Below, in pieces: positions 20,461 to 39,655 of a DNA stretch of 64,000 nt. The translations under genes and the position numbers were made by a program. The stretch comes from Escherichia coli (GTDB lineage Bacteria > Pseudomonadota > Gammaproteobacteria > Enterobacterales > Enterobacteriaceae), in the NCBI RefSeq assembly GCF_030384885.1, contig NZ_CP128613.1; one strand, 5' to 3'. The number at the start of each line of letters is the position of its first letter. Positions within the stretch are counted from its first letter, which is position 1. The notes under the pieces are model-generated. The model was not told where the DNA came from, searched no databases, and saw only the letters and a list, made by a program, of their open reading frames with translations.

Positions 20461-20489
20461 ATCGCCTCCCATTAACTATTGCCAGCTAT

Positions 20490-20507
20490 AAGCAATAATT
20501 GTGCCAG
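20490..20507 (-). promoter_or_regulatory. Sigma54 (-24/-12) promoter of the hyp operon
   Basis: Minus-strand CTGGCACAATTATTGC, GG-N10-GC spacing. Confidence 0.65.
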
Positions 20508-20532
20508 TGTTGATTATCCCTAAAGTGAATAA

Positions 20533-20562
20533 TGTCGATGATGTCGAAATGACACGTCGACA
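20533..20562. promoter_or_regulatory. Candidate FhlA upstream activating sequence between hyp and hyc
   Basis: TGTCGATGATGTCGAAATGACACGTCGACA, repeated TGTCG/CGACA half sites; FhlA binding inferred. Confidence 0.45.
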
Positions 20563-20618
20563 CGGCGACGAAATTCACCAGAATCATAAAAATCTCTTTT
20601 ATAACAATAAATTAAAAG

Positions 20619-20636
20619 TTGGCACAAAAAATGCTT
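20619..20636 (+). promoter_or_regulatory. Sigma54 (-24/-12) promoter of the hyc operon
   Basis: TTGGCACAAAAAATGCTT, GG-N10-GC spacing. Confidence 0.65.
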
Positions 20637-20671
20637 AAAGCTGGCATCTCTGTTAAACGGGTAACCTGACA

Positions 20672-21133
20672 ATGACTATTTGGGAAATAAGCGAGAAAGC
20701 CGATTACATCGCACAGCGGCATCGTCGCCTACAGGACCAGTGGCATCTCTACTGCAATTCGCTGGTTCAGGGGATCACGTTATCGAAAGCGCGCCTGCAT
20801 CACGCCATGAGCTGTGCGCCAGACAAAGAACTCTGTTTCGTCCTTTTTGAACATTTTCGCATTTACGTCACCCTGGCGGATGGCTTTAACAGCCACACCA
20901 TCGAGTATTACGTCGAAACGAAAGAGGGTGAAGAAAAACAGCGGATTGCGCAGGCACAATTGAGCATTGACGGAATGATAGATGGCAAGGTCAACATCCG
21001 CGATCGCGAACAGGTACTGGAACACTATCTCGAAAAAATCGCTGGCGTTTACGACAGCTTATACACCGCCATTGAAAACAATGTACCGGTGAATTTAAGC
21101 CAACTGGTAAAGGGACAAAGCCCGGCGGCATGA
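20672..21133 (+). CDS. hycA: Formate hydrogenlyase regulatory protein HycA, 153 aa
   Basis: First gene of hyc operon; length match. Confidence 0.9.
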   Translation: MTIWEISEKADYIAQRHRRLQDQWHLYCNSLVQGITLSKARLHHAMSCAPDKELCFVLFEHFRIYVTLADGFNSHTIEYYVETKEGEEKQRIAQAQLSIDGMIDGKVNIRDREQVLEHYLEKIAGVYDSLYTAIENNVPVNLSQLVKGQSPAA

Positions 21134-21257
21134 GCTGAGGCTTTGCCCGTTTTGCAGGCGTTACGCCTGTTTGGGGATGGGCGTGTCGATGAGTGTCGAA
21201 AATAACATTTCATCGGCATGTTTTCGTCAAAAATGACAATCACCTGAGGAATGCCTG

Positions 21258-21869: not shown

Positions 21870-23692
21870 GCGCAATTTCCCTGATCAATAGCGGCGTGGC
21901 GTGGTTTGTTGCCGCCGCTGTTCTGGCATTTCTCTTTTCTTTTCAAAAGGCGTTAAGCGGCTGGATTGCCGGAATTGGCGGCGCGGTGGGTAGCCTGTAT
22001 ACGGCAGCCGCAGGCTTCACTGTGCTGACTGGCGCGGTTGGCGTGAGCGGCGCGTTGTCGCTGGTAAGCTACAATGTGCAAATCTCTCCGCTTAATGCGA
22101 TTTGGCTGATTACCCTCGGCCTGTGCGGTCTGTTTGTCAGCCTTTACAACATTGACTGGCATCGCCATGCGCAGGTGAAATGCAACGGTTTGCAAATCAA
22201 TATGTTGATGGCTGCTGCCGTCTGTGCCGTCATTGCCAGCAATCTGGGCATGTTCGTAGTAATGGCAGAAATCATGGCCCTGTGTGCGGTGTTCCTCACC
22301 AGCAACAGCAAAGAGGGCAAACTGTGGTTTGCGCTGGGGCGTCTTGGCACTTTGCTGCTGGCGATTGCTTGCTGGCTGCTGTGGCAACGTTACGGCACGC
22401 TGGATCTGCGCCTGCTGGATATGCGCATGCAACAGCTGCCGCTTGGTTCCGATATCTGGCTGCTCGGTGTGATTGGTTTTGGCCTGCTGGCCGGGATTAT
22501 CCCGCTGCACGGCTGGGTGCCACAGGCTCATGCTAACGCCTCTGCGCCAGCTGCCGCGCTGTTTTCCACGGTGGTGATGAAAATTGGCCTGCTGGGTATT
22601 TTAACCCTGTCTCTGCTGGGCGGTAATGCGCCGCTGTGGTGGGGAATTGCACTTCTGGTACTCGGCATGATCACCGCGTTCGTCGGCGGTCTGTATGCGC
22701 TGATGGAGCACAACATTCAGCGTTTGCTGGCTTACCACACTCTGGAAAATATCGGCATCATCCTGCTGGGGCTGGGCGCTGGCGTAACGGGTATCGCGCT
22801 TGAACAACCGGCGCTGATTGCCCTTGGCCTGGTCGGTGGTCTGTACCATCTGCTTAACCATAGCCTGTTCAAGAGCGTACTGTTCCTCGGGGCTGGGAGC
22901 GTCTGGTTCCGTACCGGTCATCGCGATATCGAAAAACTCGGCGGTATTGGCAAAAAAATGCCGGTTATCTCCATCGCCATGTTGGTCGGTCTGATGGCAA
23001 TGGCTGCGCTGCCACCGCTGAACGGTTTTGCCGGGGAATGGGTTATCTATCAATCCTTCTTCAAACTGAGCAATAGTGGCGCGTTTGTTGCTCGTCTTCT
23101 CGGGCCGCTGCTCGCCGTGGGGCTGGCAATTACCGGTGCGCTGGCAGTGATGTGTATGGCGAAAGTTTATGGCGTTACTTTCCTTGGCGCGCCGCGTACC
23201 AAAGAAGCCGAAAACGCCACCTGTGCGCCGCTCCTGATGAGCGTAAGCGTAGTGGCACTGGCGATTTGCTGCGTGATTGGCGGTGTTGCTGCGCCGTGGC
23301 TGCTGCCGATGTTGTCTGCTGCCGTACCTCTGCCGCTGGAGCCTGCTAATACAACCGTTTCTCAACCAATGATCACGTTGCTGCTGATTGCCTGCCCGCT
23401 TCTGCCATTCATCATTATGGCGATTTGCAAAGGCGACCGTCTGCCGTCGCGTTCCCGCGGCGCTGCCTGGGTATGTGGCTACGACCATGAAAAATCAATG
23501 GTGATTACCGCTCACGGTTTTGCCATGCCGGTGAAACAGGCATTTGCGCCAGTGCTGAAACTGCGCAAATGGCTGAATCCGGTGTCGCTGGTACCAGGCT
23601 GGCAGTGCGAGGGGAGTGCGTTGCTGTTCCGCCGGATGGCGCTGGTTGAACTGGCGGTACTGGTGGTGATTATTGTTTCACGAGGAGCCTGA
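21866..23692 (+). CDS. hycC: Formate hydrogenlyase subunit 3, membrane antiporter-like HycC, 608 aa
   Basis: Polytopic membrane protein; operon position. Confidence 0.9.
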   Translation: MSAISLINSGVAWFVAAAVLAFLFSFQKALSGWIAGIGGAVGSLYTAAAGFTVLTGAVGVSGALSLVSYNVQISPLNAIWLITLGLCGLFVSLYNIDWHRHAQVKCNGLQINMLMAAAVCAVIASNLGMFVVMAEIMALCAVFLTSNSKEGKLWFALGRLGTLLLAIACWLLWQRYGTLDLRLLDMRMQQLPLGSDIWLLGVIGFGLLAGIIPLHGWVPQAHANASAPAAALFSTVVMKIGLLGILTLSLLGGNAPLWWGIALLVLGMITAFVGGLYALMEHNIQRLLAYHTLENIGIILLGLGAGVTGIALEQPALIALGLVGGLYHLLNHSLFKSVLFLGAGSVWFRTGHRDIEKLGGIGKKMPVISIAMLVGLMAMAALPPLNGFAGEWVIYQSFFKLSNSGAFVARLLGPLLAVGLAITGALAVMCMAKVYGVTFLGAPRTKEAENATCAPLLMSVSVVALAICCVIGGVAAPWLLPMLSAAVPLPLEPANTTVSQPMITLLLIACPLLPFIIMAICKGDRLPSRSRGAAWVCGYDHEKSMVITAHGFAMPVKQAFAPVLKLRKWLNPVSLVPGWQCEGSALLFRRMALVELAVLVVIIVSRGA

Positions 23693-32693: not shown

Positions 32694-33704
32694 ATGACGA
32701 CAATGCTGGAAGTGGCGAAGCGCGCCGGGGTTTCAAAAGCGACCGTTTCCCGCGTGCTTTCAGGTAATGGCTACGTCAGCCAGGAAACTAAAGATCGCGT
32801 GTTTCAGGCGGTGGAAGAGAGCGGCTACCGCCCAAATTTGCTGGCGCGCAATCTGTCAGCGAAGAGTACCCAGACGCTGGGGCTGGTAGTGACCAACACG
32901 CTTTACCACGGCATTTATTTTAGTGAATTACTGTTTCATACCGCGAGAATGGCGGAAGAGAAAGGGCGTCAGCTGCTATTGGCAGATGGCAAACATAGCG
33001 CCGAAGAAGAACGCCAGGCGATTCAGTATCTACTGGATCTGCGCTGCGACGCCATTATGATTTACCCGCGCTTTTTAAGCGTGGATGAGATTGATGACAT
33101 CATTGATGCGCACAGTCAGCCGATAATGGTGCTCAATCGACGCCTGCGCAAAAACAGCAGCCATAGTGTCTGGTGCGATCATAAACAGACCAGCTTTAAC
33201 GCCGTGGCAGAGTTGATAAACGCCGGACATCAGGAGATTGCTTTCCTTACCGGTTCGATGGATTCCCCCACCAGCATTGAACGCCTTGCCGGATATAAAG
33301 ACGCGCTGGCGCAGCATAGTATTGCACTCAATGAAAAACTTATCGTCAACGGTAAATGGACGCCTGCCAGCGGGGCCGAAGGGGTAGAAACGTTGCTCGA
33401 ACGTGGGGCTAAATTTAGCGCGTTAGTTGCCAGTAACGACGATATGGCGATAGGTGCGATGAAAGCGTTGCATGACCGTGGTGTAGCGGTGCCGGGGCAA
33501 GTATCGGTTATTGGATTTGATGATATCGCAATTGCCCCCTACACCGTTCCGGCGCTCTCCAGCGTAAAAATTCCGGTGACTGAGATGATTCAGGAAATAA
33601 TTGGGCGGCTGATATTTATGCTCGATGGTGGTGCTTATACACCGCCGAAAACCTTCAGCGGAAAACTGATCCGCCGCGACTCCCTCATTGCTCTTTCGCG
33701 ATAA
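32694..33704 (+). CDS. ascG: LacI-family repressor AscG, uninterrupted
   Basis: LacI-type HTH N-terminus (MLEVAKRAGVSKATVSRVL); exact start among three clustered ATGs is uncertain. Confidence 0.85.
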   Translation: MTTMLEVAKRAGVSKATVSRVLSGNGYVSQETKDRVFQAVEESGYRPNLLARNLSAKSTQTLGLVVTNTLYHGIYFSELLFHTARMAEEKGRQLLLADGKHSAEEERQAIQYLLDLRCDAIMIYPRFLSVDEIDDIIDAHSQPIMVLNRRLRKNSSHSVWCDHKQTSFNAVAELINAGHQEIAFLTGSMDSPTSIERLAGYKDALAQHSIALNEKLIVNGKWTPASGAEGVETLLERGAKFSALVASNDDMAIGAMKALHDRGVAVPGQVSVIGFDDIAIAPYTVPALSSVKIPVTEMIQEIIGRLIFMLDGGAYTPPKTFSGKLIRRDSLIALSR

Positions 33705-33717
33705 GCATTGTCATCAC

Positions 33718-33745
33718 ATGTCATCGTCACTAGTGTCGATGACAT
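33718..33745. promoter_or_regulatory. Dyad ATGTCATCG-N10-CGATGACAT, candidate FhlA UAS upstream of hydN
   Basis: Perfect 9-bp inverted arms read directly; FhlA binding inferred from operon context. Confidence 0.4.
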
Positions 33746-33780
33746 CGTTTATTCTGCATTGCAGAATTTAATTTCTTTAA

Positions 33781-33818
33781 ATAACAATCAATTAAAAGTT
33801 GGCATGATTTGTGAATGT
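33781..33818 (+). promoter_or_regulatory. Putative sigma54-type promoter region of hydN-hypF
   Basis: ATAACAATCAATTAAAAGTTGGCA matches the hycA promoter -24 region at 23 of 24 positions; the -12 GC is not at canonical spacing. Confidence 0.4.
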
Positions 33819-33852
33819 ATCGGCGCATTAACTGTCATTGCTGGAGAATTTG

Positions 33853-34380
33853 ATGAACCGTTTCATCATTGCTGACGCGAGTAAATGTATTGGTTGTCGT
33901 ACCTGTGAAGTGGCGTGCGTGGTTTCTCATCAGGAGAATCAGGACTGTGCATCGCTGACCCCGGAAACTTTTTTACCGCGAATCCATGTCATTAAAGGTG
34001 TGAACATTTCCACGGCGACAGTCTGCCGTCAGTGTGAAGATGCACCGTGCGCTAACGTCTGCCCGAATGGTGCTATCAGCCGTGATAAAGGGTTTGTTCA
34101 TGTCATGCAGGAACGTTGCATTGGTTGCAAAACCTGCGTTGTGGCTTGCCCGTATGGTGCGATGGAAGTGGTAGTGCGTCCGGTGATTCGCAACAGCGGC
34201 GCAGGGCTTAACGTACGCGCTGACAAAGCCGAAGCTAATAAATGCGACCTCTGTAACCATCGTGAAGACGGCCCGGCCTGTATGGCTGCTTGCCCGACCC
34301 ATGCGCTGATTTGTGTCGATCGTAATAAACTTGAACAACTGAGCGCAGAAAAACGCCGCCGCACGGCGCTGATGTTCTAA
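33853..34380 (+). CDS. hydN: 4Fe-4S ferredoxin-type electron transport protein HydN, 175 aa
   Basis: Begins [22 protein letters not shown]; several Cys clusters. Confidence 0.9.
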
Positions 34381-34532
34381 AAATCTTACAGAACTGTTCT
34401 GGCATCAAAGGAATTCCCGGAAATATTCGTAGAATACGGAGCGGGCGGTATCGCCAACCTGTGACTACCGGATGCGACGCGGTCGTGTCCGGCTGGGCGG
34501 GTTACGCAATTCATGATGGCGGGAATAACTCA

Positions 34533-36785
34533 ATGGCAAAAAACACATCTTGCGGTGTCCAACTGCGTATTCGTGGCAAAGTGCAGGGCGTCGGTTTTCG
34601 TCCATTTGTCTGGCAACTGGCACAGCAATTAAATCTTCACGGCGATGTCTGTAATGACGGCGATGGCGTGGAAGTCCGGTTGCTGGAAGATCCGGAAACG
34701 TTTCTTGTTCAATTGCATCAGGATTGTCCGCCGCTGGCGCGTATTGATAGCGTCGAATGTGAGCCGTTTATCTGGATGCAGCCGCCCACTGAGTTCACCA
34801 TCCGCCAGAGCGCGGGCGGCGTCATGAATACGCAAATTGTTCCCGATGCCGCGACTTGTCCTGCCTGTCTTGCCGAAATGAATACCCCAGGCGAACGGCG
34901 TTATCGTTATCCGTTTATCAACTGTACCCACTGCGGCCCGCGTTTCACCATTATTCGCGCGATGCCTTACGACCGTCCGTTTACCGTGATGGCGGCGTTT
35001 CCGCTATGTCCGGCCTGCGATAAAGAATATCGCGACCCGCTCGATCGTCGCTTTCACGCCCAGCCGGTGGCCTGCCCGGAGTGTGGCCCACATCTTGAAT
35101 GGCTAAGTCATGGTGAACATGCGAAACAAGAGGCGGCATTACAGGCGGCTATCGCTCAGTTAAAAATGGGCAACATTGTCGCTATCAAAGGGATTGGCGG
35201 ATTTCATCTCGCCTGCGATGCGCGTAACAGTAACGCGGTGGCGACACTACGGGCGCGCAAACATCGCCCGGCGAAACCGCTGGCGGTTATGTTGCCAACG
35301 GCAGAAGGTTTGCCCGACGCTGCCCGTCAGTTGCTCACCACGCCCGCCGCGCCGATTGTACTGGTGGATAAAATATATGTTCCGGAACTTTGTGACGATA
35401 TCGCCCCTGGCCTTAACGAAGTCGGGGTGATGTTGCCTGCGAATCCGCTCCAGCATTTGCTGTTACAGGAACTGCAATGCCCGCTGGTGATGACCTCCGG
35501 CAACCTGAGCGGTAAACCACCGGCTATCAGCAACGAACAGGCGCTGGAGGACTTGCAGGACATTGCCGACGGATTCTTGATTCATAACCGCGACATCGTG
35601 CAGCGGATGGATGATTCAGTGGTGCGCGAAAGTGGCGAAATGTTGCGCCGCTCGCGGGGGTATGTACCGGATGCGCTGGCTTTGCCTCTGGGCTTTAAAA
35701 ATATTCCTCCTGTGCTGTGTCTCGGTGCGGATCTGAAAAATACCTTCTGTCTGGTGCGTGGTGAACAGGCGGTGTTGAGTCAACATTTGGGCGATTTAAG
35801 TGACGATGGCATTCAGATGCAGTGGCGCGAAGCGTTGCGCCTGATGCAAAACATCTACGATTTTACTCCACAGTTTGTGGTGCATGATGCGCATCCGGGC
35901 TATGTCTCCAGCCAGTGGGCGCGTGAAATGAATCTGCCGACGCAAACGGTGCTGCATCACCATGCCCACGCGGCGGCGTGTCTGGCAGAACATCACTGGC
36001 CGCTGGATGGCGGTGATGTCATTGCGTTGACGCTCGACGGTATTGGTATGGGGGAGAACAGCGCTTTATGGGGCGGCGAGTGCCTGCGGGTGAACTATCG
36101 CGAATGCCAGCACCTGGGCGGCTTGCCAGCGGTGGCGCTTGCTGGGGGCGATTTGGCGGCGAAGCAGCCGTGGCGTAACCTGCTGGCGCAGTGCCTGCGC
36201 TTTGTGCCGGAGTGGCAGAATTACCCTGAAACGGTAAGTGTGCAACAGCAAAACTGGAGCGTGCTGGCGCGGGCCATTGAGCGTGGAATTAACGCGCCGC
36301 TGGCGTCATCGTGTGGGCGTTTGTTCGATGCTGTGGCGGCGGCACTGGGCTGTGCGCCAGCCACGTTAAGTTATGAAGGTGAAGCGGCTTGCGCCCTTGA
36401 GGCGCTGGCGGCTTCGTGCCAGGGAGTGACGCATCCGGTGACGATGCCGCTGGTGGACAATCAACTGGATCTCGCCACTTTCTGGCAGCAGTGGCTGAAC
36501 TGGCAGGCTCCGGTTAATCAACGCGCGTGGGCATTTCATGATGCGCTGGCGCAGGGTTTTGCCGCGTTGATGCGTGAGCAGGCCACGATGCGTGGTATCA
36601 CTACGCTGGTATTTAGCGGCGGGGTTATTCATAACCGTTTGCTGCGTGCACGTCTGGCGCATTATCTTGCTGATTTTACGTTGCTCTTCCCGCAGAGTTT
36701 ACCTGCGGGGGATGGCGGGTTGTCTCTGGGGCAGGGGGTTATTGTTGCGGCCCGTTGGGTGGCGGGTGAAGTCCAGAATGGATAA
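34533..36785 (+). CDS. hypF: Carbamoyltransferase HypF (hydrogenase maturation), 750 aa
   Basis: Acylphosphatase-like N-terminus, zinc-finger CxxC pairs, YrdC and Kae1-like domains; start at internal ATG ([10 protein letters not shown]). Confidence 0.9.
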
Positions 36786-39527: not shown

Positions 39528-39546
39528 TTGCAGATTGCGTGCCAGT
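39528..39546 (-). promoter_or_regulatory. Sigma54 (-24/-12) promoter of norVW
   Basis: Minus-strand CTGGCACGCAATCTGCAA. Confidence 0.7.
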
Positions 39547-39599: not shown

Positions 39600-39655
39600 G
39601 TCAAAATGACTATCAATCAAATGGTCGATATGACAATATCTATAGTCAAATTGAC
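39600..39655. promoter_or_regulatory. Three NorR enhancer sites (GT-N7-AC)
   Basis: GTCAAAATGAC (39600..39610), GTCGATATGAC (39624..39634), GTCAAATTGAC (39645..39655). Confidence 0.75.

Follow-up and report, generated by a model that had tools for sequence, protein, structure and literature searches.

What controls hydN and hypF in Escherichia coli, and why does the DNA in front of hydN repeat a piece of the hycA promoter? In the stretch analyzed here (64,000 nucleotides, hereafter the window), the 148-bp spacer between ascG and hydN is filled by the elements listed in Table 1, and the original prediction held that hydN and hycA share a common sigma-54/FhlA regulatory module. That proposal is correct: the hydN-hypF promoter is known (PMC2831329), it is bound by sigma-54 in ChIP studies (PMC4591121; PMC3844500), and it is activated by FhlA. 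In our reading, the spacer is very probably the enhancer-dependent sigma-54 control region of hydN-hypF, an operon of the FhlA regulon, laid out on the same plan as hycA. The control region itself is already known: its description dates from the 1990s, and genome-wide mapping of sigma-54 has since borne it out.

Gene coordinates were taken from the annotation of strain 2013C-4282, which is 100% identical to the window over positions 33400-34400; hycA starts at 20672, and the divergent hypA runs from 20463. In K-12, the ascG-hydN spacer corresponds to about 2,838,106-2,838,253 of NC_000913.3. For comparison, 81 hydN upstream regions (those of 80 enterobacterial species, and the window) were anchored on the TGGCA of the promoter and scored column by column. 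In 69 of these 81 genomes ascG stands directly before hydN, codirectional and ending about 140-180 nt upstream, and hycI takes its place in six. Since the arrangement with ascG spans many genera, the junction is old and does not reflect an insertion in E. coli. The 1-kb locus (33400-34400) finds at least 99% identity in only 15 of 5426 genomes, and most are at 90-95%, which points to an unusual lineage. A search of the spacer for RNA families returned no known family; its one match, to a snoRNA (E = 0.5), is put down to chance.

Table 1. Features of the ascG-hydN spacer and of its hycA counterpart, in window positions.
Feature	Position	Strand	Reading and basis
ascG	ends 33704		upstream of hydN; RefSeq annotation of strain 2013C-4282
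Extra half-site-like element, CATTGTCATCA	33707..33717	.	3 nt past the stop codon of ascG; immediately upstream of the dyad
28-bp dyad	33718..33745	.	probable FhlA enhancer (UAS); centre about -94.5 from the predicted start; conservation, geometry, shared 9-mer
Perfect 8+8 palindrome, ATTCTGCA-T-TGCAGAAT, then T-rich TTTAATTTCTTT	33751..33767	+	scored terminator-like; in the polymorphic spacer
A/T-rich tract 5' of the IHF-type core	33766..33781	+	as in strong IHF sites
24-nt block	33781..33804	+	putative IHF core, AAAGT (extended -24) and TGGCA
IHF-type core, TAACAATCAATTA	33782..33794	+	12/13 match to WATCAANNNNTTR; -44 to -32 from the predicted start; conservation
Sigma-54 promoter, TGGCATGATTTGTGAA	33800-33815	+	TGGCAT-N5-GTGAA; GG at -25/-24; TGA replaces TGC at -14 to -12
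Predicted transcription start (33826) and 27-nt leader	33826..33852	+	inferred from the -12 position; GGAG at 33843-33846
hydN; hypF	33853-34380; 34533-36785	+	operon driven by the module; RefSeq annotation of 2013C-4282
hyc UAS, ATGTCGATGATGTCGAAATGACACGTCGACA	20532..20562	.	centre about -98 from the hycA start site
hycA block and sigma-54 promoter, TGGCACAAAAAATGCT	20601..20635	+	promoter 20620-20635; published hycA promoter
hycA IHF-type core, TAACAATAAATTA	20602-20614	+

The sigma-54 promoter of hydN-hypF

The motif TGGCATGATTTGTGAA consists of the same 16 nt as the published K-12 hydN promoter, and this sequence is identical in eight of 11 aligned Escherichia genomes. Sigma-54 binding at the motif, as well as the dependence of hydN-hypF on FhlA and formate, is established in the literature. 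A table of known sigma-54-dependent promoters lists the motif as aaacTGGCATGATTTGTGAATGtatc, at -53 to -36 and 53 nt upstream of the ATG (PMC2831329), and in E. coli it underlies the sigma-54 ChIP-seq peak OS26 (CTGGCATGATTTGTGAA; flagged C in the EcoCyc column), for which the predicted start lies 27 bp from the gene (PMC4591121, including its Table 1), in agreement with 33826. Additionally, a gSELEX peak for sigma-54 falls inside the hydN/ascG spacer (PMC8743547). In Salmonella, ChIP-chip places sigma-54 on the orthologous TGGCACGATTCGTGTATA, expression of hydN-hypF is 13-fold sigma-54 (rpoN)-dependent, and FhlA is named as the activator of the operon, with Maier et al. 1996 as the source (PMC3844500). 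A 2025 review counts the operon as a member of the formate regulon whose expression is enhanced by formate-FhlA (PMC11841067). The ratios between aerobic and anaerobic growth are nearly the same for hydN (0.028), hycA (0.028), and hypA (0.031), about 35-fold each (PMC3688515, Table S12). A literature search with the literal sequences returned only lists of sigma-54 promoters.

With a sigma-54 PWM derived from the Table 2 counts of PMC7658346, which that paper credits to Barrios 1999, the hydN promoter scores only 10.6 bits, and 25 other sites in the window also reach at least 10 bits. The promoters of hycA and hypA score 14.9 and 18.6 bits, and the resulting order, with hydN lowest and hypA highest, matches that of ChIP-seq enrichment (FAT), which is 11 for hydN, 91 for hycA, and 201 for hypA (PMC4591121). 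The position of the promoter is conserved, as TGG-N9-TG is invariant in the 81 genomes and precedes the hydN ATG by 50-55 nt. It had been suggested that the hydN -12 element departs from canonical spacing; this is wrong. None of the 81 genomes departs from T-G at matrix positions 13-14, and the -12 spacing is therefore canonical in all of them. Compared with the sigma-54 consensus TGGCAC-N5-TTGCW, whose GG and GC doublets are separated by 10 nt, the GG doublet is present, the TG stands at its canonical position, and the C of the GC doublet is A; this substitution is the only peculiarity of the E. coli -12 element. At the orthologous position, 29 of the 81 genomes, including Klebsiella and Kluyvera, have TGC.

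The two halves of the promoter vary in opposite directions. Among the 81 genomes, in counts that ignore kinship, a perfect TGGCA is paired with a defective -12, either TGA (42 genomes) or TGT (10), and the defective -24 forms TGGCG (10), TGGAA (10), and TGGCT (9) are always paired with a canonical TGC. Two good halves, or two poor ones, are never combined. Conceivably, the promoter is deliberately held at low sigma-54 affinity. The -12 C has been linked to the silencing of sigma-54 closed complexes, and a hydN promoter that lacks it might therefore permit some transcription independent of FhlA, which, if true, would give basal HypF to the other hydrogenases; an unrecorded IHF site just upstream of -24 would be part of the tuning. 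We regard this conjecture as a whole as improbable.

Several other sites of this kind were observed in the window. The divergent sigma-54 promoters of hypA and hycA (20480-20506 and 20620-20646) form a 27-nt inverted repeat with 85% complementarity (TGGCACAATTATTGCTTATAGCTGGCA / TGGCACAAAAAATGCTTAAAGCTGGCA), with another TGGCA 22 nt downstream of each. Within hycC, a sigma-54-like sequence on the plus strand, TGGCGCGTTTGTTGCT (23077-23092; 15.3 bits), corresponds to the weak intragenic site IS31 of K-12 hycC known from published ChIP-seq. The norV promoter, TGGCACGCAATCTGCA, lies on the minus strand at 39529-39544 (16.4 bits), and three overlapping one-mismatch matches to the IHF consensus occur about 70-90 bp upstream of it, at 39611-39630. 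A sigma-70 promoter as the sole driver of hydN was considered and rejected: the one match, ATGACA-17-CAGAAT (9/12), is weak, and shuffled sequences give as many.

The dyad as a candidate FhlA enhancer

The perfect 9-bp dyad that had been noted before hydN, ATGTCATCG-N10-CGATGACAT, is confirmed at 33718-33745, where 0.05 such dyads are expected by chance. In its full form it has two 14-nt arms, ATGTCATCGTCACT / AGTGTCGATGACAT, which abut each other with 93% complementarity. Its centre, at about -94.5, agrees with the roughly 100 bp expected between an FhlA UAS and the sigma-54 promoter of a formate-induced operon. Its half-site, TGTCATCG(T/A)CA, is 94-100% conserved per position over 160 half-sites from 80 of the 81 genomes. 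The distance between the dyad centre and the GG of the -24 element falls into two classes, 59-62 bp (29 genomes) and 69-72 bp (51 genomes, with the window at 70 bp), and none lies at 63-68 bp. Two classes separated by one helical turn are what a face-of-the-helix requirement predicts.

The dyad also shares sequence with further regions linked to FhlA. The 9-mer TGTCGATGA occurs five times in the 64 kb, and three of these copies are in the hyc UAS (20533), the hycA-hycB spacer (21184), and the right arm of the hydN dyad. Similarly, five of the 23 matches to RTGTCGAW in the window fall within about 350 nt, spread over these three short control regions. The centre of the K-12 hyfA UAS, CGACACGGGTGTCG, resembles that of the dyad, and TCGTCAC is common to the fdhF UAS and the dyad arms. 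Upstream of the dyad, the half-site-like element next to ascG (33707..33717) pairs with 33738-33752 as an inverted repeat with 80% complementarity, and elements of the GTCGTCA type occupy this place in other genera; judged by sequence, it probably belongs to the enhancer.

Against the published FhlA matrix (13 sites; PMC7658346, Table 2), the best match in the dyad reaches 7.5 bits, and the hyc UAS, whose core is conserved in 11 genomes, reaches 15.4 bits of a maximum of 16.4 at position 20533. We take this as evidence neither way, with 61 matches of at least 9 bits in the window. The cited FhlA consensus, CATTTCGTACGAAATG, is not recognizable in the dyad, and it also speaks against the assignment that the half-sites are inverted in hydN and direct repeats in hyc. 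Confidence in the assignment is therefore good but incomplete, and the dyad is most likely the FhlA enhancer.

Two further observations concern these repeats. The 23 matches to RTGTCGAW compare with 8.6 expected, and 20 of them are on the plus strand; since most lie inside genes, the excess is probably an effect of codon usage or composition that is unrelated to FhlA. The hycA-hycB spacer (21183-21238) contains an FhlA-type cluster, GTGTCGATGAGTGTCGAAAATAACA and CGTCAAAAATGACA, with 12.0 bits each on the published matrix, and this cluster may be the UAS of the hyp promoter.

An inverted repeat behind a gene could instead be an RNA hairpin that terminates transcription of that gene, in which case no protein need bind it. 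The dyad begins 14 nt past the stop codon of ascG, the gene that immediately precedes hydN in most genomes, and the RNA from 33700-33780 folds at -21.7 kcal/mol (z = -3.9); in K-12, the dyad is followed by CGTTTTTCC. However, the arms are conserved as sequence and not as pairs, with the one variable arm position being T on the left and A on the right in 26 of 80 genomes, such that the pair is broken. The dyad does not fit an intrinsic terminator, which has a G+C-rich stem, a U run after it, and pairing kept by compensatory change: the stem is G+C-poor, the T run 3' of the dyad is missing in most genera, and a terminator scan did not call the dyad. Furthermore, the dyad is kept where hycI replaces ascG, and a quantized distance to the -24 element is unexpected for a terminator. 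We consider a terminator in this position quite unlikely, and we retain the reading of the dyad as a putative FhlA enhancer. The palindrome at 33751-33767 is a separate matter. It is degraded in K-12 and hence lineage specific, and is possibly a weak terminator of ascG, outside the conserved module.

The block shared with hycA

The 24-nt block ATAACAATMAATTAAAAGTTGGCA is present, as described, at 20601-20624 (with A at position 9) and at 33781-33804 (with C at position 9), and the two copies agree at 23 of 24 positions. No further copy exists in the window at up to three mismatches, and none was found in 100 shuffles. The block had been regarded as part of the sigma-54/FhlA module; it does belong to a shared module, but it is an IHF-type core joined to an extended -24 element and not an FhlA site. 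The K-12 regions upstream of fdhF, hyfA, and hypA lack the block, which is therefore no general signature of the FhlA regulon.

The degree of identity depends on the lineage. The K-12 hydN block, ATAACAGTAAATTAAAAACTGGCA, matches the K-12 hycA block at 21 of 24 positions; hycA-hydN identity is 19-21/24 in other Escherichia and 10-17/24 in other genera, and the hycA block of the window matches the 81 hydN blocks with a mode of 17-19/24. The spacer of the window differs from that of K-12 at 11 positions, four of which are in the block, and the dyad, the leader, and the 16-nt promoter are identical; within Escherichia, the polymorphic part is the spacer from the dyad to TGGCA. Of 5426 complete E. 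coli genomes, just 12 contain the exact 71-nt stretch 33760-33830. The match at 23 of 24 positions is thus lineage specific, and not very special.

If the block were a relic of a duplicated promoter, or the product of gene conversion between hycA and hydN, the match would reflect common descent. The identity between the two copies peaks within Escherichia (19-23/24), and three of the four differences from the K-12 hydN block run toward the hycA sequence. The fourth, A to C at position 9, moves away from hycA and lies between the other three, and a single conversion tract therefore does not fit. Moreover, the mean identity of hycA and hydN blocks shows no excess for copies from the same genome (16.6/24) compared with copies from different genomes (16.1/24), and on these two grounds gene conversion or concerted evolution of the blocks was rejected. 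The similarity also ends at the block edges, with unrelated -12 halves and upstream spacers, and the positions that vary are those which the IHF consensus leaves free. Descent from a common sequence is a very unlikely source of the match.

The alternative that we prefer is two adjacent functional sites under the same constraint. The original prediction had proposed aligning the region across enterobacteria, and in the 81 genomes the specified columns of the IHF consensus are indeed conserved, together with the -24 element. Counted from the T of TGGCA, conservation covers columns -18 to -13 and -8 to -3. It is far weaker in columns -12 to -9, three of which are nearly unconstrained. The mean information is 1.25 bits in the specified IHF columns, 0.40 bits in the N columns, and about 0.1 bits farther upstream. 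Columns -34 to -27 are A or T in most of the 81 genomes, with AA at -30/-29 in 63 and 75 of them. The best match to the IHF consensus lies at the same offset in 70 of the 81, and many genera have a perfect AATCAATNNGTTA. Within Escherichia, polymorphisms occur mainly at the N positions of the consensus, at the WATCA(A/G) position, and at the two bases 5' of TGGCA. This pattern, in which the specified positions are conserved and the N positions drift, fits purifying selection that acts on the specified positions alone.

In a single genome, a match to the IHF consensus carries no weight by itself, as one-mismatch matches are common: the background is about 4e-4 per position and strand, and the window contains 52 where 47 are expected. 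The evidence lies instead in the placement and in the conservation pattern. The IHF-type cores of hycA and hydN share both their strand and their offset from TGGCA (-18, counted from its T). The AAAGT between core and TGGCA fits the extended -24 element as defined by Barrios et al., and activation of hyc and hyp by IHF reportedly traces to Hopper et al. 1994. IHF is cited as an activator of hyc and hyp (PMC2636881). A literature search for IHF ChIP or footprint data at hydN found none.

Another regulator of hyc and hydN, such as ModE, might in principle bind the block in place of IHF. For the hyc operon, ModE is named in the literature as a secondary activator, and the literature search turned up no binding data for the hydN block. 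Nevertheless, the conservation of each column follows WATCAANNNNTTR exactly, including the four unconstrained central columns and the A/T tract upstream; the ModE consensus consists of TATAT-type repeats, and the block has no visible repeat of this type. We hold such a regulator to be very unlikely. The shared block is, on the pattern of its sequence, a putative IHF core fused to an extended -24 element, and the candidate site for FhlA is the dyad instead. Two adjacent sites that are constrained separately, and held at the same spacing, produce a long match between promoters that are otherwise unrelated.

The combined model and its relation to known systems

Together, these elements suggest the following course of activation, which is standard for sigma-54 promoters assisted by IHF. 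FhlA, activated by formate, would bind the dyad at 33718-33745, around -95, and IHF would bind the A/T tract and core (about 33766-33794, around -50, just upstream of -24) and bend the DNA. The bend would allow FhlA to contact the sigma-54 RNA polymerase, which would rest as a closed complex on TGGCAT-N5-GTGAA (33800-33815). ATP hydrolysis by FhlA would then open the promoter, with transcription starting near 33826.

Three parts of this description may be unrecorded, namely the IHF-type site of hydN, the helical quantization of the enhancer distance, and the anticorrelation of the -24 and -12 elements, and none of them is surprising. What is gained is, for the anatomy, a comparative picture in which the shared block is an IHF-type core with the -24 element and not an FhlA site; for phasing, an enhancer kept in helical phase (about 60 or 70 bp) across the Enterobacteriaceae; and for promoter strength, halves that are never both strong in the 81 genomes. 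Possible uses include promoter engineering for hydrogen production, as well as a small study of how the strength of sigma-54 promoters is tuned.

With regard to known systems, the promoter of the window is the same element, at the same locus, as the hydN-hypF promoter published for K-12 and Salmonella (PMC2831329; PMC4591121; PMC3844500). Relative to K-12, the four changes in the block raise the identity of hydN to hycA from 21 to 23 of 24. Between hycA and hydN, the order and geometry of the elements agree, with the UAS centred at about -98 in hycA and about -94.5 in hydN, as do the offset of the IHF-type core, the block (21-23/24 within E. coli), the 9-mer TGTCGATGA, and the roughly 35-fold change between aerobic and anaerobic growth.

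The two differ in the -12 element, which is a canonical ATGCT in hycA (14.9 bits, FAT 91) and GTGAA in hydN (10.6 bits, FAT 11), and in the arrangement of the half-sites, which are tandem, direct TGTCGA repeats in the hyc UAS and the arms of a 28-bp inverted repeat in the hydN UAS. In addition, hyc has its UAS region in common with the divergent hyp promoter. Beyond the FhlA regulon, IHF-assisted sigma-54 promoters such as nifH, Pu, and glnHp2 have a bending site between enhancer and promoter, and their distances change in steps of a helical turn. The hydN region resembles them in both respects, with a predicted site for a bending protein between enhancer and promoter and with spacing in helical-turn steps, although its IHF-type core ends only 5 nt from TGGCA and is closer to the promoter than in these textbook cases.
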